A stretch of 64,000 nucleotides of DNA from Escherichia coli (lineage in GTDB: Bacteria > Pseudomonadota > Gammaproteobacteria > Enterobacterales > Enterobacteriaceae). Made by a program: the position numbers and the translations under genes. Location of the stretch: assembly GCF_024223415.1 (NCBI RefSeq), contig NZ_CP100500.1, one strand, 5' to 3'. The notes under the pieces were generated by a model. It was not told where the DNA came from. It made no database searches and was given only the letters and a program-made list of their open reading frames with translations. Below are positions 33,306 to 45,300 of this stretch, in pieces; within the stretch, counting starts at the first letter, position 1, and each line of letters opens with the position of its first letter.

Positions 33306-35207
33306 ATGTCAACCGGATTACGTTTCACACTGGAAGTGGACGGCCTGCCACCGGACGCTTTTGCGGTGGTTTCCTTTCATCTCACCCAGTCACTCTCTTC
33401 GCTCTTTTCCCTCGATCTCTCCCTGGTCAGCCAGCAGTTTCTCTCCCTTGAATTCCAGCAGATCCTCGACAAAATGGCCTACCTGACGATATGGCAGGGC
33501 GATGACGTACAGCGCCGGGTGAAAGGTGTGGTGACCTGGTTTGAACTGGGGGAGAACGACAAAAACCAGATGCTGTACAGCATGAAGGTATGCCCGCCGC
33601 TGTGGCGTGCCGGTCTGCGCCAGAACTTCCGTATCTTCCAGAACGAGGACATCAAAAGCATCCTCGGCACGATATTGCAGGAAAACGGGGTGACCGAGTG
33701 GAGTCCGCTGTTCAGTGAACCGCATCCTTCCCGTGAGTTTTGTGTCCAGTACGGTGAGACTGATTACGATTTCCTGTGCCGGATGGCGGCGGAGGAAGGC
33801 ATCTTCTTTTATGAGGAGCATGCTTACAAAAGTACCGACCAGAGCCTGGTGCTGTGCGACACGGTCCGCCATCTGCCCGAATCTTTTGAAATCCCATGGA
33901 ACCCGAACACCCGTACCGAGGTGAGCACCCTCTGCATCAGCCAGTTTCGCTACAGCGCACAAATCCGCCCTTCTTCCGTGGTGACCAAAGACTACACCTT
34001 TAAACGCCCCGGCTGGGCAGGACGTTTTGATCAGGAAGGCCAGCACCAGGATTACCAGCGCACGCAGTATGAGGTGTATGACTACCCCGGACGTTTCAAG
34101 GGCGCCCACGGGCAGAACTTTGCCCGCTGGCAGATGGAGGGCTGGCGAAACAATGCAGAAACCGCGCGGGGAATGAGTCGCTCGCCGGAGATATGGCCGG
34201 GACGGCGAATTGTGCTGACGGGGCATCCGCAGGCGAACCTGAACCGGGAATGGCAGGTGGTGGCAAGTGAACTGCACGGCGAGCAGCCGCAGGCGGTGCC
34301 GGGAAGGCGGGGAGCAGGGACGGCGCTGGAGAACCATTTTGCGGTGATCCCGGCAGACCGGACATGGCGACCCCAGCCGCGGCTAAAACCGCTGGTGGAC
34401 GGTCCGCAGAGCGCCGTCGTGACGGGGCCGGAGGGTGAGGAAATCTTCTGTGATGAACATGGCCGAGTGCGGGTGAAATTCAACTGGGACCGTTATAACC
34501 CGGCAGACCAGGACAGCTCGTGCTGGATCCGTGTGGCACAGGCGTGGGCAGGCACCGGTTTTGGCAACCTGGCGATACCGCGTGTGGGTCAGGAGGTGAT
34601 AGTGGACTTCCTCAACGGCGATCCGGACCAGCCGATCATTATGGGGCGCACCTACCACCAGGAAAACCGCACCCCCGGCAGCCTGCCGGGGACGAAGACG
34701 CAGATGACCATCCGTTCCAAAACGTATATGGGCAGCGGGTTTAATGAGCTGAAGTTTGACGATGCGACAGGGAAAGAACAGGTCTACATCCACGCGCAGA
34801 AGGACATGGATACCGAGGTACTCAACGATCGTACCACCACCGTAAAACACGATCATCGCGAAACCGTAAAAAATGACCAGACGGTCACGATACAGGAAGG
34901 TAATCGCCTTCTTATGGTGGAAAAAGGCGACAAGATCACAGGAGTACGAAAAGGTTCTTTATCTGAGAATGTCTTTCAGGACAGAGGCACGATTGCCGGT
35001 TCGGTGCATGTTGACGCTGTAGACAATGGTGGCGAAGGCAACGGTATACAGGCTTATACGGCAATTAAGGAAATTATGCTGGCCGTGGAGGAAAGCAAAA
35101 TTGCGCTGACGCCGGATGGCATTCAGCTACAGGTCGGGGAATCAACGGTAATCAGGCTGTCGAAGGATGGCATCACCATCGTGGGCGGCTCTGTTTTTAT
35201 CAACTGA
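33306..35207 (+). CDS. vgrG: type VI secretion spike protein VgrG (gp27/gp5-like, no C-terminal extension)
   Basis: 633-aa ORF with strong RBS GGAGG; canonical VgrG sequence features; preceded by about 600 bp of AT-rich DNA. Confidence 0.9.
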   Translation: MSTGLRFTLEVDGLPPDAFAVVSFHLTQSLSSLFSLDLSLVSQQFLSLEFQQILDKMAYLTIWQGDDVQRRVKGVVTWFELGENDKNQMLYSMKVCPPLWRAGLRQNFRIFQNEDIKSILGTILQENGVTEWSPLFSEPHPSREFCVQYGETDYDFLCRMAAEEGIFFYEEHAYKSTDQSLVLCDTVRHLPESFEIPWNPNTRTEVSTLCISQFRYSAQIRPSSVVTKDYTFKRPGWAGRFDQEGQHQDYQRTQYEVYDYPGRFKGAHGQNFARWQMEGWRNNAETARGMSRSPEIWPGRRIVLTGHPQANLNREWQVVASELHGEQPQAVPGRRGAGTALENHFAVIPADRTWRPQPRLKPLVDGPQSAVVTGPEGEEIFCDEHGRVRVKFNWDRYNPADQDSSCWIRVAQAWAGTGFGNLAIPRVGQEVIVDFLNGDPDQPIIMGRTYHQENRTPGSLPGTKTQMTIRSKTYMGSGFNELKFDDATGKEQVYIHAQKDMDTEVLNDRTTTVKHDHRETVKNDQTVTIQEGNRLLMVEKGDKITGVRKGSLSENVFQDRGTIAGSVHVDAVDNGGEGNGIQAYTAIKEIMLAVEESKIALTPDGIQLQVGESTVIRLSKDGITIVGGSVFIN

Positions 35208-35234: not shown

Positions 35235-35696
35235 ATGCAGTTCACTTTTAATGAAGGCCACATTCAACTGCCGTCTCAATGGCAGGATCAGTCAATGCAG
35301 GTCCTGGTGTCCACAGATAACAGTGGCATCAACCTGGTCATTACCCGCGAAGCCGTTCCACAGGGAACCCTGACACCAGAGCTGTACCAGGAAACGCTGG
35401 CGCTGTACCAGGGCAAACTTGATGGGTACACCGCACATGCCTGCCGGGAAATCACTCTGGCAGAGGCCCCGGCCTGGCTGCTGGATTATTCCTGGAACGG
35501 TCCGGAAGATGAAGGGAATCAGGGGCGGATTAGCCAGATAGCCGTATTCCAGCGGCGTGGAGATACGCTGCTGACCTTCACTTTCAGCACCTCCTTATCC
35601 CTGAAGAACAGTCAAAAGACGATGCTGCTGGAGGTGATAAAGAGCTTCACCCCGTTGCCACCGGAGAATGATATCCAAAAGGACCAGCCGCGCTGA
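35235..35696 (+). CDS. DUF1795-family (Eag-like) effector chaperone/adaptor
   Basis: 153-aa ORF directly between vgrG and a prePAAR Rhs gene, the usual position and size for Eag/DUF1795 chaperones; family assignment is by context and sequence recollection. Confidence 0.7.
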   Translation: MQFTFNEGHIQLPSQWQDQSMQVLVSTDNSGINLVITREAVPQGTLTPELYQETLALYQGKLDGYTAHACREITLAEAPAWLLDYSWNGPEDEGNQGRISQIAVFQRRGDTLLTFTFSTSLSLKNSQKTMLLEVIKSFTPLPPENDIQKDQPR

Positions 35697-35715: not shown

Positions 35716-38700
35716 ATGAGTGAAGGACCAGGCGGGCCACAGGGAGCGACCGCAGGCGGTACGCTGGCAATGCGAATGCTTTCACAGCAGGCGATGGTCG
35801 CCAGCCAGATGAAACGGGCAGCCAACAACAAAGCCATTGCACAGATGTTGGCATCAAAAAAGTCTGGCCCCCCCGCCGCCAGGCTGGGCGATGAAATTCA
35901 GCACAAGAGTTTTTTGGGGGCGCTGGCAGGGGCCGTGCTGGGGGCGATAGTGACCATCGCAGAAGGTTGCCTGATTATGGCCGCCTGTGCCACCGGCCCT
36001 TATGCGCTGGTTCTGGTGCCTGCGCTGATGTATGCCAGCTATAAGGCGAGTGATTATGTGGAGGAGAAACAGAACCAGCTTGAATCATGGATAAACAGCT
36101 TTTGTGACACGGACGGCGCCATCAATACCGGTTCTGAAAACGTAAAAATTAACGGAAAGCCCGCTGCCAGGGCCGCCGTCACCCTTCCCTCTCCTCCCCC
36201 GCCTGAAGCAATACCCGAAGCCTCACAGGGGGAGCATTCATGGGGTGACATGGCCCTTGACCTGCTTGAATCGGCAGCGGAAAAAGCAGCGCCACTGGCT
36301 AAATCCTGGGGGAACGCTGTTATCACCCTGACGGACAGCAATGCCAGTTTTATGGATCGCGTCAGTGCAGGCGCATCGCTTCTGTTTCCCGCCGGTCCGG
36401 TATTAATGGAGTTTGCCACCATGGTGGGCGGGCGTGGCGAAATCAAAAAAGATGTGGATTTCCCGGAAGCCGGTGAGGACACGGCGCTCTGCGACAAGGA
36501 GAACAAACCACCGAGGATAGCCCAGGGCAGCAGCAACGTCTTTATCAACAATCAGCCTGCCGCGCGCAAGGGCGACAAACTGGAGTGCAGCGCGGCAATC
36601 GTGGAAGGTTCGCCGGACGTCTTTATTGGGGGTGAGCAGGTCACCTATCTGGATATCCAGCCGGAGTTCCCGCCATGGCAGAGAATGATCCTGGGAGGAA
36701 TAACGATAGCCAGCTATCTTCTGCCGCCAGCAGGACTGCTGGGAAAACTGGGGAATCTGGCGAAACTGGGCAAACTGGGAAACCTGCTGGGGAAAAGCGG
36801 GAAGCTGCTGGGCGCAAAACTCGGCGCGTTGCTGGGGAAAACAGGTAAGTCGTTAAAAAGTATTGCCAATAAAGTCATCAGATGGGTAACAGATCCTGTC
36901 GATCCGGTAACCGGCGCGTACTGCGACGAACGTACCGACTTCACCCTGGGCCAGACCCTCCCCCTCTCCTTCACCCGTTTCCACAGTTCTGTACTGCCAC
37001 TGCATGGCCTGACGGGCGTGGGCTGGAGCGACTCCTGGAGCGAATACGCCTGGGTGCGTGAACAGGGAAACCGGGTGGATATCATCAGCCTGGGAGCCAC
37101 GCTGAACTTCGCCTTCGACGGTGAAAGTGATACGGCGGTTAACCCGTATCACGCCCAGTACATTCTGCGCCGCTGCGACGATTACCTGGAGCTGTTCGAC
37201 AGGAATGCACTGAGCAGCCGCTTCTTTTATGACGCCTTTCCGGGAATGCGTCTGCGCCACCCGGTGACTGACGATACCAGCGATGACCGCCTGGCACACA
37301 GCCCCGCAGACCGGATGTACATGCTGGGCGGGATGAGCGACACCGCCAGCAACCGCATCACGTTTGAGCGCGACAGCCAGTACCGGATCACGGGTGTCAG
37401 TCACACCGACGGGATCCGGCTTAAACTGACGTACCACGCCAGCGGCTACCTGAAAGCCATTCACCGCACGGATAACGGCATACAGACGCTGGCGACCTAC
37501 GAACAGGATGCGCGGGGGCGGCTGACAGAAGCGGATGCGCGGCTGGACTACCACCTGTTTTATGAGTACGACGCTGCGGACCGGATCATCCGCTGGTCCG
37601 ATAACGACCAGACGTGGAGCCGTTTCACCTACGATGAACAGGGCCGGTGCGTGACCGTCACCGGGGCGGAGGGCTATTACAACGCCACGCTGGACTATGG
37701 TGACGGCTGCACCACCGTGACGGACGGCAAGGGCATTCACCGTTATTACTATGATCCTGACGGCAATATTCTGCGGGAAGAAGCGCCGGACGGCAGCACC
37801 ACCACGTATGAATGGGATGAATTCCATCACCTGCTGGCCCGCCACTCCCCTGCCAGGCGGGTGGAGAAATTTGAATACAACGCCGCACAGGGTCAGTTAA
37901 GCCGTTACACGGCGGCAGACGGCGCGGAGTGGCAGTACTGCTATGATGAGCGCGGCCTGCTCAGCAACATCACCGACCCTGCCGGGCAGACGTGGACGCA
38001 GCAGTGTGATGAACGCGGCCTGCCGGTAAGTCTGGTGTCGCCACAGGGCGAAGAGACCCGGCTGGCGTACACGCCGCAGGGGCTGCTGTCGGGGATATTC
38101 CGCCAGGATGAACGGCGTCTGGGCATAGAGTACGACCACCACAACCGGCCGGAAACACTCACCGACGTGATGGGCCGTGAACACCACACCGAATACAGCG
38201 GTCACGACCTGCCGGTGAAGATGCGCGGCCCCGGCGGTCAGTCAGTGCGGTTGCAGTGGCAGCAGCACCATAAACTGAGCGGCCTTGAGCGGGCAGGAAC
38301 CGGCGCAGAAGGATTCCGCTATGACCGCCACGGCAACCTGCTGGCGTACACGGACGGTAACGGCGTTGTCTGGACAATGGAATACGGCCCGTTCGATTTG
38401 CCGGTGGCGCGAACGGACGGTGAAGGCCACCGCTGGCAGTACCGCTACGATAAAGACACGCTGCAGCTCACAGAAGTCATTAACCCGCAGGGTGAGTCTT
38501 ATCTTTATATTCTGGACAACTGTGGCCGGGTGACGGAAGAACGTGACTGGGGCGGCGTGGTCTGGCGTTACCGTTATGACGCTGATGGCCTGTGTACCGC
38601 CAGGGTCAACGGCCTGGAGGAAACCATCCTCTACGGCCGGGACGCCGCAGGCCGCCTGGCAGAAGTCATCACGCCGGAAGGTAAAACGCAGTATGCGTAT

Positions 38701-40536
38701 GACAAATCCGGCAGGCTGACGGGTATCTTCAGCCCGGACGGCACATCACAGCGCACCGGCTACGACGAACGCGGGCGGGTGAATGTCACCACTCAGGGCC
38801 GACGGGCCATTGAATACCACTACCCCGACGAACATACCGTCATCCGCTGTATCCTGCCACCGGAAGATGAACGCGACAGACACCCCGATGAATCCCTGCT
38901 GAAAACCACGTACCGCTACAACGCAGCCGGAGAACTGACGGAGGTTATCCTGCCGGGGAATGAGACGCTGACGTTCAGCCGTGATGAGGCAGGACGTGAA
39001 GTGTTCCGGCACAGTAACCGGGGTTTTGCCTGTGAGCAGGGCTGGAATGCAGCCGGCCAGCTTACCAGCCAGCGCGCCGGACTTTTCCCGGAGGAAGCCA
39101 CGTGGGGCGGGCTGGTTCCGTCACTGGTGCGGGAGTACCGTTACGACAGCGCGGGTAATGTGTCAGGCGTCACCAGCCGGGAAGATTACGGACGGGAAAC
39201 ACGGCGGGAATACCGGCTGGACCGGAACGGCCAAGTCACGGCGGTGACAGCCTCAGGCACCGGGCTGGGCTATGGCGAAGGCGATGAGTCCTATGGCTAT
39301 GACAGCTGTGGCTACCTGAAGGCGCAGTCTGCGGGCAGGCACCGGATAAGTGAAGAGACTGACCAGTATGCCGGAGGCCACCGGCTGAAACAGGCCGGAA
39401 ACACGCAGTATGACTATGACGCCGCAGGCCGGATGGTCAGCCGGACAAAACACCGTGACGGCTACCGCCCGGAAACAGAGCGGTTCCGGTGGGACAGCCG
39501 GGACCAGCTGACCGGGTATTGCAGCGCACAGGGTGAGCTGTGGGAATACCGCCACGACGCCAGCGGCAGACGAACAGAGAAACGCTGCGACCGGAAGAAA
39601 ATCCGCTTCACGTATCTGTGGGACGGCGACAGTATTGCGGAAATCCGGGAATACCGCGATGATGAACTGTACAGCGTACGGCACCTGGTGTTTAACGGCT
39701 TTGAGCTGATAAGCCAGCAGTTCAGCCGGGTACGGCAGCCGCACCCGTCCGTGGCTCCGCAGTGGGTGACGCGGACGAATCATGCGGTGAGCGACCTGAC
39801 GGGCCGGCCGCTGATGCTCTTTAACAGTGAAGGTAAAACCGTCTGGCAGCCGGGACAGACCAGCCTGTGGGGGCTGGCACTCAGCCTGCCCGCAGACACA
39901 GACTACCCGGACCCGCGCGGGGAACTGGACCCGGAAGCCGACCCCGGCCTGCTGTATGCGGGACAGTGGCAGGATGCGGAATCCGGGCTGTGCTATAACC
40001 GGTTCCGGTATTACGATCCGGAAACCGGAATGTACCTGGTGAGTGATCCGCTGGGGTTGCAGGGAGGGGAGCAGACTTACCGGTATGTGCCTAATCCTTG
40101 TGGGTATGTTGATCCCTCTGGGTTGGCAATGACTTCGAAAATAGTCAATAAACTACCTTCTGCAAAAGATCTTGCTACAAAAAGGGCCAGTGAGTTATTA
40201 GCAAAGGCAACATCTAATACCCAGCGAAGTAAATTACCAAGGGCAGTTTCAGCTGTTGTTGATAAGAGAACTGGCAAAATATATTATGGAGAAAGTGGCT
40301 GGCCTCACCCAACAGAAATACATCCTACATTACAAAATAATATGCCATCAGCCAGTAAGGAGCGATGGGCAATCGAGAACTGTGCGGAATTTAAAGCTGT
40401 AAATGAAGCTTTGAAGGCAAATGCGAAAATTAGTGATCTTGAAGTTCATACAGTATTGGTAAAAACAGGCGAAGCTTTTCCAATGTGTAAGAATTGTCAA
40501 ATTTCAATATTTGGCGCTGTTGTTACAAGCGGGTGA
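35716..40536 (+). CDS. rhs: Rhs polymorphic toxin with N-terminal prePAAR/TM/PAAR region, YD-repeat shell and a variable C-terminal tip resembling a deaminase-fold toxin
   Basis: 1606-aa ORF; prePAAR motif AARLGDEIQH followed by hydrophobic helices; YD repeats; core ends with DPLGL...DPSGLA (about 40045-40119); after that GC content drops and the tip carries C-A-E (40381..40389) and P-M-C-K-N-C (40480..40497) about 34 residues apart, the zinc-ligand pattern of cytidine/adenosine deaminases. Confidence 0.9.
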   Translation: MSEGPGGPQGATAGGTLAMRMLSQQAMVASQMKRAANNKAIAQMLASKKSGPPAARLGDEIQHKSFLGALAGAVLGAIVTIAEGCLIMAACATGPYALVLVPALMYASYKASDYVEEKQNQLESWINSFCDTDGAINTGSENVKINGKPAARAAVTLPSPPPPEAIPEASQGEHSWGDMALDLLESAAEKAAPLAKSWGNAVITLTDSNASFMDRVSAGASLLFPAGPVLMEFATMVGGRGEIKKDVDFPEAGEDTALCDKENKPPRIAQGSSNVFINNQPAARKGDKLECSAAIVEGSPDVFIGGEQVTYLDIQPEFPPWQRMILGGITIASYLLPPAGLLGKLGNLAKLGKLGNLLGKSGKLLGAKLGALLGKTGKSLKSIANKVIRWVTDPVDPVTGAYCDERTDFTLGQTLPLSFTRFHSSVLPLHGLTGVGWSDSWSEYAWVREQGNRVDIISLGATLNFAFDGESDTAVNPYHAQYILRRCDDYLELFDRNALSSRFFYDAFPGMRLRHPVTDDTSDDRLAHSPADRMYMLGGMSDTASNRITFERDSQYRITGVSHTDGIRLKLTYHASGYLKAIHRTDNGIQTLATYEQDARGRLTEADARLDYHLFYEYDAADRIIRWSDNDQTWSRFTYDEQGRCVTVTGAEGYYNATLDYGDGCTTVTDGKGIHRYYYDPDGNILREEAPDGSTTTYEWDEFHHLLARHSPARRVEKFEYNAAQGQLSRYTAADGAEWQYCYDERGLLSNITDPAGQTWTQQCDERGLPVSLVSPQGEETRLAYTPQGLLSGIFRQDERRLGIEYDHHNRPETLTDVMGREHHTEYSGHDLPVKMRGPGGQSVRLQWQQHHKLSGLERAGTGAEGFRYDRHGNLLAYTDGNGVVWTMEYGPFDLPVARTDGEGHRWQYRYDKDTLQLTEVINPQGESYLYILDNCGRVTEERDWGGVVWRYRYDADGLCTARVNGLEETILYGRDAAGRLAEVITPEGKTQYAYDKSGRLTGIFSPDGTSQRTGYDERGRVNVTTQGRRAIEYHYPDEHTVIRCILPPEDERDRHPDESLLKTTYRYNAAGELTEVILPGNETLTFSRDEAGREVFRHSNRGFACEQGWNAAGQLTSQRAGLFPEEATWGGLVPSLVREYRYDSAGNVSGVTSREDYGRETRREYRLDRNGQVTAVTASGTGLGYGEGDESYGYDSCGYLKAQSAGRHRISEETDQYAGGHRLKQAGNTQYDYDAAGRMVSRTKHRDGYRPETERFRWDSRDQLTGYCSAQGELWEYRHDASGRRTEKRCDRKKIRFTYLWDGDSIAEIREYRDDELYSVRHLVFNGFELISQQFSRVRQPHPSVAPQWVTRTNHAVSDLTGRPLMLFNSEGKTVWQPGQTSLWGLALSLPADTDYPDPRGELDPEADPGLLYAGQWQDAESGLCYNRFRYYDPETGMYLVSDPLGLQGGEQTYRYVPNPCGYVDPSGLAMTSKIVNKLPSAKDLATKRASELLAKATSNTQRSKLPRAVSAVVDKRTGKIYYGESGWPHPTEIHPTLQNNMPSASKERWAIENCAEFKAVNEALKANAKISDLEVHTVLVKTGEAFPMCKNCQISIFGAVVTSG

Positions 40537-40540
40537 TTAT

Positions 40541-40978
40541 ATGTGTGAATTAATTAATGAAGCATCAAAATATGGGAAAGTCAATGTAAGAAAGATGGAC
40601 ATTGATTTGTGTTGTAAAAAAATAGAGGAAGAAGGGTATTCTGTTTTCGTTGCGTTCTATGATTTTATAAAAAAATATGGCGGTTTATATGGCTTTCATT
40701 CAGCTTACAAAGACACCACTATAAGTGAGGCTTTTTTTATAGATCCAGAAAGGGCCTCTAATCGCATTTTTATAGAAAGAGTCAATGATTATATTGAGAG
40801 AGCTGGTTACAATATGATTCCTGTTGGCGAGTGCAGTAATGGTCATATCACATTATTATATGGGGAAAATAATGTGATATATGGCGGCTTGGATGATTAT
40901 CTTTGGAAGTATGGGGATAATTTATCTTCATCAATTGATATATTGATTAATGGTAAGGAGGCAGTTGAAATTCCGTAA
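40541..40978 (+). CDS. putative cognate immunity protein for the Rhs tip
   Basis: AT-rich ORF starting 5 bp after the rhs stop (ATG at 40541; an upstream TTG at 40511 would overlap rhs); position and composition typical of Rhs immunity genes; family unknown. Confidence 0.6.
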   Translation: MCELINEASKYGKVNVRKMDIDLCCKKIEEEGYSVFVAFYDFIKKYGGLYGFHSAYKDTTISEAFFIDPERASNRIFIERVNDYIERAGYNMIPVGECSNGHITLLYGENNVIYGGLDDYLWKYGDNLSSSIDILINGKEAVEIP

Positions 40979-40984
40979 GGCCAA

Positions 40985-42909
40985 CTGCCAGGGCCAACGG
41001 CCTGGAGGAAACCATCCTCAACAGCCGGGACGCCGCAGGCCGCCTGGCAGAAGTCATCTCGCCGGAAGGCAAAACGCAGTATGCGTATGACAAATCCGGC
41101 AGGCTGACGGGTATCTTCAGCCCGGACGGTACATCACAGCGCACCGGCTATGATGAACGCGGGCGGGTGAATGTCACCACTCAGGGCCGACGGGCCATTG
41201 AATACCACTACCCCGATGAACACACCGTCATCCGCTGTATCCTGCCACCGGAAGATGAACGCGACAGACACCCCGATGAATCCCTGCTGAAAACCACATA
41301 CCGCTACAACACCGCCGGAGAACTGACGGAGGTCATTCTGCCGGGGGATGAGACGCTGACGTTCAGCCGTGATGAGGCGGGACGTGAAGTGTTCCGGCAC
41401 AGTAACCGGGGTTTTGCCTGTGAGCAGGGCTGGAATGCAGCCAGCCAGCTTGTCACCCAGCGCGCCGGATTTTTCCCGGAGGAAACCACATGGGGCGGGC
41501 TGCTCCCCTCACTGGTACGGGAGTACCGTTACGACAGCGCGGGCAATGTGTCGGCTGTCACCAGCCGGGAAGATTACGGACGGGAAACACGGCGGGAATA
41601 CCGGCTGGACCGGAACGGCCATGTCACGGCGGTGACAGCCTCAGGCACCGGGCTGGGCTATGGCGAAGGCGATGAGTCCTATGGCTATGACAGCTGCGGC
41701 TACCTGAAGGCGCAGTCTGCGGGCAGGCACCGGATAAGTGAAGAGACTGACCAGTATGCCGGAGGCCACCGGCTGAAACAGGCCGGAAACACGCAGTATG
41801 ACTATGACGCCGCAGGCCGGATGGTCAGCCGGACAAAACACCGTGACGGCTACCGCCCGGAAACAGAGCGGTTCCGGTGGGACAGCCGGGACCAGCTGAC
41901 CGGGTATTGCAGCGCACAGGGTGAGCAGTGGGAATACCGCCACGACGCCAGCGGCAGACGGACGGAAAAACGCTGTGACCGGAAGAAAATCCGTTTTACG
42001 TACCTGTGGGACGGCGACAGTATTGCGGAAATCCGGGAATACCGCGATGATGAACTGTACAGCGTACGGCACCAGGTGTTTAACGGCTTTGAGCTGATAA
42101 GCCAGCAGTTCAGCCGGGTACGGCAGCCGCACCCGTCCGTGGCCCCGCAGTGGGTGACGCGGACGAATCACGCGGTGAGCGACCCGACGGGCCGCCCGCT
42201 GATGCTCTTTAACAGTGAAGGCAAGACGGTCTGGCGGCCGGGGCAGACCAGCCTGTGGGGGCTGGCACTCAGCCTGCCCGCAGACACCGACGACCCGGAC
42301 CCGCGCGGGGAACTGGACGCGGAAGCCGACCCCGGCCTGCTGTATGCAGGACAGTGGCGGGATGGGGAATCCGGGCTGTGCTATAACCGGTTCAGGTACT
42401 ACGAGCCGGAAACCGGAATGTACCTGGTGAGTGATCCACTGGGGTTGCTGGGGGGTGAGCAGACTTACCGGTATGTGCCTAATCCACTGGGTTGGATTGA
42501 CCAGTATGGACTTGCTGGTTGCCCCAGAGCTCTGGCAAGGGCAATGAAACGGGCTAACAGAAACCTAGCTAAGAGTGCCGGATACATGAATCGAGCTTGG
42601 TATAAATTCAAAGGTTCTGCCGCCCATCATATTGTTGCTTGGGATGACCCCCGTGCTTTAGGCGCAAGAAAAATTCTGGAAAAATATGGTATACACATTG
42701 ATTCCGCAGAAAATGGAATATTTTTGAAACATGTAGATCCAAACTCTCTTCAGCCAGGATCTTATCATCGTGTTATTCATACGAACAAATATTATGCTGA
42801 TGTTGAGGCACGACTCGCAGACGCAGCTAAGGCTAATGGGAAACAAGGTGTTCTTGATGAGTTAGATGCTATCAGGGATGACCTGCTTTTTAATAGACTA
42901 ATTTATTAA
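40985..42909 (+). pseudogene. orphan rhs fragment (about 1.5 kb of core plus a distinct tip of the AHH nuclease family), no N-terminal region
   Basis: Nucleotides about 40988-42500 are near-identical to the main rhs at about 38599-40115; after its own DPLGL motif the tip differs and contains GSAAHHIVAWDD (AHH at 42622..42630), then ENGIFL and SYHRVIH, matching the HNH-like AHH family; longest internal ORF is 41167..42909. Confidence 0.7.
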
Positions 42910-42922
42910 TAAGGGCATAGTA

Positions 42923-43456
42923 ATGAATGTTTATTTAATTCGGCATGATGTGGACAACTTCAAGTTTTACTTGCAAGACGAGAGTGACTTTCTTTCAGTT
43001 GCTGCTTTTGATTTTTGTGGAGAGTCTCTATTTAATGGATGGAAACCATACAAAATAGAGCTATTTAAAGGAAAAACTAAAGCTGAGAAATCATTAAACG
43101 GGGATTTTAATTCATCATGTTTTAGTCCAGGATTATTATACGTCGAACATTCTCTCGCAGATGTATTATCTCGTCAGGCAAATGATATTGAGTTATTAAA
43201 AGTAATCACCAGTGATGATCGTGATTTTTATTATGCAAACGTGGTAGGGAAAATACCAGCCTTACATTATAACAACAGACAAGAGCTACAAATTATGAGT
43301 AGAACACAAGAATATAAATTCAATAACTCCATAAATGAAATGTTAATATTTCGTGATAAAACATTACCTTCAAACTATTTTGTTACAGATCGTTTTGTGG
43401 ATATTTTTCAGAATGATTTTCGTGGGGTAATTTTTAAAAAAGTTGGTGAGATATAA
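42923..43456 (+). CDS. putative immunity protein for the orphan AHH-nuclease tip
   Basis: 177-aa AT-rich ORF immediately downstream of the orphan tip; family unknown. Confidence 0.6.
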   Translation: MNVYLIRHDVDNFKFYLQDESDFLSVAAFDFCGESLFNGWKPYKIELFKGKTKAEKSLNGDFNSSCFSPGLLYVEHSLADVLSRQANDIELLKVITSDDRDFYYANVVGKIPALHYNNRQELQIMSRTQEYKFNNSINEMLIFRDKTLPSNYFVTDRFVDIFQNDFRGVIFKKVGEI

Positions 43457-43482: not shown

Positions 43483-44015
43483 ACCGCTATGACCGCCACG
43501 GTAACCTGCTGGCGTACACGGACGGTAACGGCGTTGTCTGGACGATGGAATACGGCCCGTTCGATTTGCCGGTCGCGCGAACGGACGGTGAAGGCCACCG
43601 CTGGTGGTACCGCTACGATAAAGACACGCTGCAACTGACAGAAGTCATCAACCCGCAGGGTGAGTCATATCTTTATGTTCTGGATAACTGTGGCCGGGTG
43701 ACGGAAGAGCGTGACTGGGGCGGCGTGGTCTGGCGTTACCGCTATGACGCCGATGGCCTCTGTACCGCCAGGGTCAACGGACTGGAGGAAACCATCCTCT
43801 ACAGCCGGGACGCTGCAGGGCGCCTGGCAGAAGTCATCACGCCGGAAGGGAAAACGCAGTATGCGTATGACAAATCCGGCAGGCTGACGGGTATCTTCAG
43901 CCCGGACGGCATATCACAGCGCACCGGCTATGACGAACGCGGGCGGGTGAATGTCACCACTCAGGGCCGACGGGCAGGGAAAGATCATCAGAAGTTCACT
44001 TTTTGTACTAAATAA
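43483..44015 (+). pseudogene. second rhs core fragment (about 0.5 kb) truncated at the H-repeat insertion
   Basis: Near-identical to the main rhs at about 38316-38808; ORF 43545..44015 ends in a short unrelated tail (GKDHQKFTFCTK) where the H-repeat element begins. Confidence 0.65.
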
Positions 44016-45300
44016 TTCGCATTTTATGTTTAAAAATTGAGATATTCCTCATTATCCGAAGCTGTTTTTTATTGCTTATACATGATCAAATACTCCTTAC
44101 ATAATTAAGGAGAACAAAATGGAACTTAAAAAATTGATGGAACATATTTCTATTATCCCCGATTACAGACAAGCCTGGAAAGTGGAACATAAATTATCAG
44201 ATATTCTACTGTGGACTATTTGTGCCGTTATTTCTGGTGCAGAAGGTTGGGAAGATATAGAGGATTTTGGGGAAACACATCTCGATTTTTTGAAGCAATA
44301 TGGTGATTTTGAAAATGGTATTCCTGTTCACGATACCATTGCCAGAGTTGTATCCTGTATCAGTCCTGCAAAATTTCACGAGTGCTTTATTAACTGGATG
44401 CGTGACTGCCATTCTTCAGATGATAAAGACGTCATTGCAATTGATGGAATAACGCTCCGGCACTCTTATGATAAGAGTCGTCGCAGGGGAGCGATTCATG
44501 TCATTAGTGCGTTCTCAACAATGCACAGTCTGGTCCTCGGACAGATCAGGACGGATGAGAAATCTAATGAGATTACAGCTATTCCTGAACTTCTTAACAT
44601 GATGGATATTAAAGGAAAAATCATCACAACTGATGCGATGGGTTGCCAGAAAGATATTGCAGAAAAGATACAAAAACAGGGAGGGGATTATTTATTCGCT
44701 GTAAAGGGAAATCAGGGGCGACTAAATAAAGCCTTTGAGGAAAAATTCCCGCTGAAAGAATTAAATAATCCAGAGCATGACAGTTACGCAATCAGTGAAA
44801 AGAGTCACGGCAGAGAAGAAATCCGTCTTCATATTGTTTACGATGTCCCTGATGAACTTATTGATTTCACGTTTGAATGGAAAGGGCTGAAGAAATTATG
44901 CGTGGCAGTCTCCTTTCGGTCCATAATAGCAGAACAAAAGAAAGAGCCAAAAATGACGGTCAGATATTATATCAGTTCTGCTGATTTAACCGCAGAGAAG
45001 TTCGCCACAGCAATCCGAAACCACTGGCACGTGGAGAATAAGCTGCACTGGCGTCTGGACGTGGTAATGAATGAAGACGACTGCAAAATAAGAAGAGGAA
45101 ATGCAGCAGAATTATTTTCAGGGATACGGCACATTGCTATTAATATTTTGACGAATGATAAGGTATTCAAGGCAGGGTTAAGACGTAAGATGCGAAAAGC
45201 AGCCATGGACAGAAACTATCTGGCGTCAGTCCTTGCGGGGAGCGGGCTTTCGTAATCTTGCCCTGCCTGCTCACCTCCAGGCACTTCCACTACATCATGA
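44016..45300 (+). mobile_element. H-repeat (H-rpt) insertion element, boundaries approximate
   Basis: Encloses the H-rpt transposase ORF; left edge set where rhs homology stops (about 43976-44016); right edge not defined by recognisable terminal repeats. Confidence 0.45.
44119..45255 (+). CDS. H-repeat-associated protein (ISAs1-family transposase, YhhI/YdcC-like)
   Basis: 378-aa ORF closely resembling the H-rpt proteins found next to K-12 Rhs elements; sits at the distal end of the Rhs island. Confidence 0.85.

Follow-up and report, generated by a model that had tools for sequence, protein, structure and literature searches.

What does the C-terminal tip of an Escherichia coli Rhs protein do to the cell that receives it? 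The question is raised by a stretch of 64,000 nucleotides of E. coli DNA (assembly GCF_024223415.1, contig NZ_CP100500.1), called here the window, to which all coordinates refer. It holds an rhs gene that ends in a short, AT-rich tip domain, directly followed by a 145-aa open reading frame (ORF). An earlier inspection of the letters alone, the sequence-only reading, had seen in this pair a deaminase-like toxin and its immunity gene. Our analysis assigns the tip to the YwqJ-like deaminase clade, as one of its divergent members. We read the whole as a type VI secretion system (T6SS) vgrG-island module, with vgrG, eagR, PAAR-Rhs and immunity genes, that carries a YwqJ-like deaminase toxin. The probability that we give to this reading is about 0.8. 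The two elements at its center are the following.

40126..40536, + strand: toxin tip, YwqJ-like zinc deaminase domain, 136 aa, residues 1471-1606 of the Rhs protein
40541..40978, + strand: cognate immunity gene, 145-aa SUKH-3 protein, acidic (isoelectric point, pI, 4.7), assigned by PF14433, RefSeq and adjacency

Sequence and motifs of the toxin tip

The rhs ORF (35716-40536) is uninterrupted and encodes 1606 aa. Its C-terminal junction reads ...YRYVPNPCGYVDPSGL and then AMTSK..., and the 136-aa tip begins after it. The sequence-only reading had drawn a tip of about 139 aa after a DPxGL motif, with its start at 40120. The cleavage motif is there, as PCGYVDPSGL, but the tip is slightly shorter than it had been drawn: position 40120 corresponds to the Gly of DPSGL (residue 1469), and the tip proper begins at residue 1471.

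The tip carries ENCAEFKAVNEAL (NCAE), with Cys1556 at 40381-40383 and Glu1558 at 40387-40389. It also carries FPMCKNC, with Cys1591 at 40486-40488 and Cys1594 at 40495-40497. Both motifs had been named correctly at the outset. However, the second is PxCxxC and not PCxxC, and the first Cys of NCAE and that of CKNC lie 35 residues apart instead of 34. C1556, C1591 and C1594 are the predicted zinc ligands, and E1558 is the predicted catalytic residue.

The domain is basic (pI 9.5), as is its family (median pI 8.8). The earlier remark that the tip and the next ORF are richer in AT than the rhs core agrees with the GC profile. The GC fraction is about 0.60-0.65 in the core, falls to 0.33-0.46 over 40000-40900 and recovers to about 0.58 beyond.

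Placement in the YwqJ-like deaminase clade

Compared with Pfam, the tip matches the YwqJ-like deaminase family (PF14431) with E 3.8e-6 and 27.6 bits, over model positions 5-130 of 138. A weak second match (E 0.042) is to dCMP_cyt_deam_1, the general zinc-binding family of dCMP/cytidine deaminases. Exhaustive HMMER searching of 1.84 billion representative proteins returned 382 homologues of the tip at E <= 1e-3 and 158 at E <= 1e-10. With word-indexed searches, the toxin gave just 7 proteins and the immunity protein 4.

Nearly all relatives end with this domain, 0-10 residues from the C-terminus of a longer protein. DPxGL or YD-repeat signatures precede it in many of them, as expected of polymorphic-toxin tips. 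PF14431 is matched at E <= 1e-3 by 33 of the 48 relatives in the alignment, with 15 missing this threshold; at E <= 0.1 the number is 41.

Conservation was estimated on 144 distinct relatives, which share 35-60% identity. In tip numbering, C88, E90 and C123 are each conserved in 99% of them and C126 in 97% (residues 1556, 1558, 1591 and 1594 of the Rhs protein). The subclade has a signature of its own, composed of D48, G52, S59-G60, P76, S79, W83, N87-C-A-E, N95, A97 and C-x-N125-C. The Gly column that is typical of the YwqJ clade is replaced, and this marks a distinct subclade. Searched alone against the PDB, the tip sequence gave no match even at E 10. Only the profile of the family alignment reached cytidine deaminases of solved structure (3dmo, E 1.2e-3), and it put NCAE and CxxC opposite the CAE and PCxxC of these enzymes. 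The deaminase fold of the tip is supported along three independent lines, and the tip is a divergent branch of the YwqJ-like clade.

Predicted structure of the tip

The AlphaFold2 model, built from a 48-sequence alignment, has a mean predicted local distance difference test score (pLDDT) of 96 and a predicted template modeling score (pTM) of 0.88. It contains these elements, in tip numbering.

Element 1, residues 15-29: helix
Element 2, residues 42-48 and 54-58: two strands
Element 3, residues 59-87: insert, some 30 residues long, in which 69-74 form a short helix
Element 4, residues 89-99: helix with CAE
Element 5, residues 107-113: strand
Element 6, residues 124-129: helix with CxxC (CKNC)
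Element 7, residues 133-135: very short last strand of 2-3 residues; strand 5 is absent

As modeled, the tip is a deaminase core cut after helix 3/strand 4. The fold has three layers, and helices 2 and 3 carry the zinc site at their N-termini, as in the cytidine deaminase (CDA)-like superfamily. The insert that separates strand 2 from helix 2 also holds His68 (IHP), which is kept in 51% of the 144 relatives.

Comparison of the model with solved structures gave the following scores.

Blasticidin-S deaminase: 9.5
Cytidine deaminase: 7.9
TadA-8e: 7.8
Guanine deaminase: 7.7
T6SS toxin SsdA: 7.0
DddA: 5.2
DddB/BaDTF3: 3.5

No solved structure is close to the tip (identity at most about 20%), and no YwqJ-type structure is known. 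A Foldseek search of the model against the PDB was likewise weak, with a best E of 8.5e-3. Against AFDB50, it gave 166 matches at E <= 1e-3, with Rhs tips on top. The second-best match is the tip of a Pectobacterium versatile Rhs protein (64% identity). Several matched entries are named YwqJ-like deaminase, with TM-scores of 0.65-0.75.

The sequence-only reading had recognized a deaminase-like signature and fold, and had proposed a profile HMM search and a structure prediction to check it. The PF14431 match and the family profile onto 3dmo support the fold. The profile search found deaminase families (PF14431 at E 3.8e-6), and the model shows a deaminase core. That reading had left the tip without a family; it can now be assigned to one, the YwqJ-like deaminases of PF14431.

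The SUKH-3 immunity gene

The immunity ORF begins with the ATG at 40541, 4 nt past the rhs stop. Its 145-aa product matches SUKH-3 in Pfam (PF14433, E 1.3e-12), and RefSeq annotates the same gene as "SUKH-3 domain-containing protein".

The same pairing is found in distant relatives. Nine related loci combine an intact toxin domain with a readable next gene, and in 9 of 9 this gene, directly downstream, is SUKH-3. Five of them are representative relatives with a complete downstream gene on the contig, and all five have SUKH-3 there. Two of the five carriers are Rhs proteins; the others are a Tox-PAAR-like protein, a prePAAR/PAAR protein and a cyanobacterial protein. The further four, with a homologue of the immunity protein next to the toxin (E 9e-19 to 5e-6), belong to Anabaena, a Coriobacteriales metagenome-assembled genome (MAG), Nostoc and Psychrobacter. 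The additional loci come from a DNA search with a degenerate pattern that encodes NCAEF[KN]A[AV]N; it returned 11 loci. The 145-aa ORF is therefore supported as the immunity gene of the tip. The PF14433 match, together with the toxin-then-SUKH-3 order in these relatives, upholds the initial proposal of an adjacent immunity gene. A precedent is Bacillus subtilis, where the toxic YwqJ is neutralized when its downstream gene, ywqK, is co-expressed (PMC8321402).

A fused model of toxin, (GGGGS)6 linker and immunity protein, made with AlphaFold2, reached a pTM of 0.86. Both domains had pLDDT above 95 and the linker below 50; the alignment held just 10 paired rows plus unpaired ones. The model suggests that the tip and the SUKH-3 protein may form a defined complex.

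Other loci returned by the pattern differ from this picture. L005 is without a toxin and is probably a chance match. Three Bacillota loci, from genomes or MAGs (L006, L008 and L014), have a deaminase domain that is fragmentary or split over two frames, and phmmer detected no SUKH-3 homologue downstream of them. They may be pseudogenes, or may be paired with another immunity family, such as Imm6, which is listed for the clade. The Nostoc locus counted above (Nostoc sp. CHAB 5836, L012, 6279-7893) has two tandem cassettes, in each of which a truncated deaminase relative is followed by a SUKH-3 gene. It has the look of an orphan toxin/immunity array of this family in a cyanobacterium.

Proposed mechanism and substrate

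Rhs proteins autoproteolyse at PxxxxDPxGL, and we infer cleavage of the present Rhs protein from that general knowledge. From what is known of Rhs and T6SS biology, the PAAR-Rhs protein would load on the VgrG spike through PAAR, chaperoned by EagR. The 136-aa tip would be released by autoproteolysis at DPSGL within the Rhs shell, and would then reach the cytoplasm of a neighboring cell. Following deaminase chemistry, the zinc held by C1556, C1591 and C1594 would activate a water molecule. E1558 would shuttle the proton, with hydrolytic deamination of a cytosine-type base as the predicted outcome. C-to-U changes in the target, mutagenic or lethal, would be expected if the substrate is polynucleotide cytosine. 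In the producer cell, the acidic SUKH-3 protein would bind and block the toxin.

Which base carrier is attacked is the central question. The most likely substrate is cytosine in a single-stranded polynucleotide, DNA or RNA, to which we give roughly even chances. The evidence in favor is weak. DNA cytosines are the target of all the toxin deaminase clades that have been tested (PMC7901873; bioRxiv 10.1101/2023.05.21.541555). The combination of a basic toxin (pI 9.5) and an acidic immunity protein (pI 4.7) points in the same direction. So does a Ser-Gly-Trp in the strand 2-helix 2 insert (tip residues S59-G60-W61, 40294-40302). SsdA has an SGW motif in the same insert, where it contacts the backbone of single-stranded DNA (ssDNA) (PMC12494967), and the SGW of the tip is a putative parallel to it. 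In the family, the Ser is conserved in 90% and the Gly in 83%, and the Trp is not conserved.

Free nucleosides or nucleotides are a somewhat unlikely substrate, and a substrate of yet another kind is unlikely. We also propose, as a tentative idea on which we would not wager, that the NCAE/CxNC subclade acts on something new to interbacterial deaminase toxins. Candidates would be RNA, for instance cytidines of tRNA or mRNA, or the pool of free nucleotides, and not DNA. The term nucleic-acid deaminase stays a prediction because the YwqJ family has been named but not biochemically characterized.

Several observations weigh against a YwqJ-like toxin that edits nucleic acids and is delivered by a T6SS. 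The PF14431 match is modest in bits. The Gly of the Gx[CH]xE motif is missing from the tip, which has Glu in its place (ENCAE), and is present in only 11% of the 144 relatives. The closest solved structures, blasticidin-S deaminase and cytidine deaminase, are enzymes of small substrates. In B. subtilis, YwqJ halts growth while nucleoid and rRNA are visibly unaffected, and its authors suggest a small-molecule target (PMC8321402). YwqJ is not among the clades reported as active on ssDNA in a screen of 16 families, whose text is silent on whether it was included (bioRxiv 10.1101/2023.05.21.541555). The literature searched gave no substrate report and no biochemical data for any YwqJ-like deaminase. 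Finally, no T6SS core genes lie within the 64-kb window. Delivery is for this reason argued by analogy.

The B. subtilis result is also an argument for a toxin whose deamination targets are free nucleosides, nucleotides or some other small molecule (such as CTP/dCTP or cytidine pools), so that pools are corrupted or depleted and nucleic acids are not edited. The N-C-A-E motif, common to tetrameric cytidine deaminases, points the same way. Nevertheless, those tetrameric enzymes have active sites built from more than one subunit, and they retain strands 4-5, which the tip does not have. The basic domain with its acidic immunity protein and the action on DNA of all tested toxin deaminase clades also disagree with a small-molecule target, and we regard it as unlikely. 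The cut after strand 4 could instead mean that the fold is kept and the deaminase is not: the tip would be an inactive remnant, or would perform another chemistry, as in the JAB, AICAR transformylase and LpxI branches. No member of the family has a measured activity, which leaves room for such a view. It is nonetheless very improbable. The three zinc ligands and the catalytic Glu, conserved at 97-99% in the 144 relatives, are the exact deaminase signature. Truncated forms have been described for the YwqJ clade (PMC3239186), and the small BaDTF3 deaminase is reported to be active (PMC13346905). Moreover, an intact ORF with a conserved, dedicated immunity gene next to it is only sensible for an active toxin. 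Short motifs such as CAE...CxxC do arise by chance, even in an unrelated Rhs tip, and the weak Foldseek E-values against the PDB would fit a coincidence. The conservation of the C/E/C/C residues and the deaminase profile matches have already refuted this explanation, whose probability is practically nil. An active YwqJ-like deaminase toxin is the reading that we retain.

The vgrG island and the downstream cassettes

The genes and elements that precede the tip are these.

33306..35207, + strand: vgrG, T6SS spike, first gene of the island (633-aa ORF)
35235..35696, + strand: eagR-type chaperone, DcrB/DUF1795-related (153-aa ORF; RefSeq "DcrB-related protein")
35716..40095, + strand: PAAR-Rhs carrier with prePAAR, split PAAR and RHS/YD-repeat shell (Pfam matches, ORF)
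40096..40125, + strand: Rhs autoproteolysis motif PxxxxDPxGL, as PCGYVDPSGL (read from the sequence)

The N-terminus of the Rhs protein matches prePAAR_I (PF25799, E 3.7e-5, residues 54-100). PAAR_motif (PF05488) is found in two parts, at residues 266-310 (E 2.4e-10) and 132-153 (E 4.9e-3). All the architectural traits of class I prePAAR PAAR-Rhs effectors are present: prePAAR, PAAR, the RHS shell, PxxxxDPxGL, and an upstream vgrG and Eag chaperone. A DcrB-family gene occupies the matching place before a prePAAR/PAAR toxin at the locus of one relative. E. coli NCTC9112 has a 100%-identical locus, in which vgrG is labeled "type VI secretion system tip protein VgrG", and the island sits between cusS and nfrB. 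The locus is the known E. coli vgrGO1-eagR-PAAR-Rhs-CT island. Searches of NCBIfam and PADLOC with the tip, immunity protein, chaperone and neighboring ORFs gave no match.

Two further features follow the immunity gene.

40984..42909, + strand: orphan rhs-CT cassette, in which the 3' end of the rhs core is repeated and joined to a different tip, an AHH nuclease (identity, Pfam)
42923..43456, + strand: presumed immunity gene of the AHH cassette, 177-aa AT-rich ORF (position only; no NCBIfam/PADLOC match)

The repeat (40984-42485) is 95.7% identical to the 3' end of the rhs core (38596-40097). The tip of this orphan cassette matches AHH (PF14412, E 2.8e-16), and RefSeq describes the cassette as an N-terminally incomplete RHS protein. 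A third core fragment (43484-43975) is 95.5% identical to 38316-38807. After it comes an ISAs1-family transposase ORF (44119-45255), intact here with 378 aa; in NCTC9112 the annotation treats the same transposase as a pseudogene that has an internal stop. Ahead of nfrB, the third fragment and the ISAs1 element mark the decayed end of the array of cassettes. Because orphan cassettes share the repeated core and many E. coli keep the immunity gene alone, the deaminase tip is an interchangeable cassette of a recombining array.

Distribution in E. coli

We compared 891 bases of the window (40100-40990, tip and immunity gene) with 5426 complete E. coli genomes. The query was matched in 365 of them and was whole in just 4; it is 100% identical in the chromosomes of SCU-316, O78 strain 3 and NCTC9112. 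About 300 of the 5426 hold query positions 311-887 alone, which are the last 127 nt of the tip and the whole SUKH-3 gene. All of these immunity-only genomes have the query start 311 in common. The carriers of the immunity gene with a toxin stump include O111 Shiga toxin-producing E. coli (STEC) lineages. Some 59 further genomes hold only an 89-nt remnant of the 3' end of the immunity gene. With 4 whole copies and about 300 immunity-only ones, the weapon is rare, and the antidote with a catalytically decapitated stump is common.

One orphan locus, that of DSM 103246, was aligned. The breakpoint is at about 40410, directly past the CAE codons on their 3' side; there, rhs-core-like sequence adjoins the tip. 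The remnant also has a Cys-to-Phe change in the CxxC motif. In this orphan remnant, window positions ~40410-40978 correspond to 7001-7577 of L002.

The plasmid search gave only distant matches, and a phage or plasmid origin was rejected. Two E. coli records of PLSDB (CP088669.1, 722307-722441, and NZ_CP141089.1, 662580-662714) hold a fragment 58% identical to tip residues 83-127. They are a second remnant, and a more diverged one, of a related deaminase tip. Of the two "plasmid" records, one measures 4.9 Mb and is probably a chromosome.

Significance

The sequence-only reading had allowed for a new type of toxin-immunity pair. This did not hold, as the kind was already predicted in 2011 (PMC3239186) and Rhs-YwqJ fusions have been catalogued elsewhere. 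What is new here is the member itself, which belongs to a divergent subclade and is rare in E. coli. To a specialist the architecture would be no surprise, and the locus is otherwise a standard Rhs cassette array.

By 2021, the substrate was defined for 3 of 8 toxin-linked deaminase subfamilies (PMC7901873), and a later screen added more. The substrate of the YwqJ-like group can be settled most easily with a native E. coli toxin-immunity pair. If the tip edits nucleic acids, it would be a 136-aa deaminase with a cognate protein inhibitor, which is of interest for base editors. If the substrate proves to be new, the pair would be a tractable entry to a new toxic mechanism. The imbalance between armed and immune E. 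coli is a clear case of orphan immunity outlasting its weapon. This imbalance and the substrate question make the locus a reasonable experimental target.

Comparison with known systems

DddA and SsdA bind zinc through the His of HAE, while the tip has Cys at this position. Like DddA (BaDTF1), SsdA (BaDTF2) and BaDTF3, the tip is a deaminase-fold toxin of Rhs- or PAAR-delivered T6SS type with a dedicated immunity protein, and its Ser-Gly(-Trp) lies in the same insert as the SGW of SsdA. However, it has no sequence-level match to the three. Membership of BaDTF1-3 was rejected because neither a sequence match nor a close structural match was found. The immunity proteins differ too: SsdAI is all-helical (PMC7901873), and the one described here has the SUKH-3 fold.

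Islands of the vgrGO1-eagR-PAAR-Rhs-CT type deliver other C-terminal toxins in E. coli, in a T6SS-, VgrG- and EagR-dependent manner, as experiments have shown (Ma et al. 2017, Environ Microbiol 19:345, summarized in PMC6730261 and bioRxiv 10.1101/2024.03.05.583533). The islands of Ma et al. share with ours the gene order and the neighboring AHH-nuclease cassette. The deaminase tip described in these summaries is of MafB19 type (PF14437) and not of YwqJ type.

Fusions of Rhs with YwqJ have been catalogued by annotation as Tme22AB in Acinetobacter baumannii (PMC6833914) and Prhs24 in Pectobacterium (bioRxiv 10.1101/2025.05.08.652813). They resemble the present module in the vgrG-linked Rhs, the YwqJ-deaminase tip and the downstream gene for a cytoplasmic immunity protein. 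They differ in belonging to other genera and in being annotation-level predictions, and the likeness of Tme22AB is one of architecture.

The closest relationship is with the YwqJ-like clade itself, defined by Iyer, Zhang, Rogozin and Aravind in 2011 with RHS carriers and SUKH-3 and Imm6 immunity partners (PMC3239186). Its features are Gx[CH]xE in helix 2, an insert before CxxC and frequent truncation after helix 3/strand 4 (PMC3239186). The tip shares with it the HMM match, the CxE of helix 2 and the CxxC of helix 3, the insert, the truncation, the carrier and the immunity partner. It also stands at the C-terminus of a polymorphic toxin. In contrast with the clade, it has no Gly two residues before the Cys, and it shows the S-G, P..S..W, N-C-A-E and C-x-N-C signature of its own. 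The B. subtilis prototype is an LXG toxin of a type VII secretion system, with YwqK as its antitoxin, whereas this divergent member is borne by a T6SS PAAR-Rhs protein.

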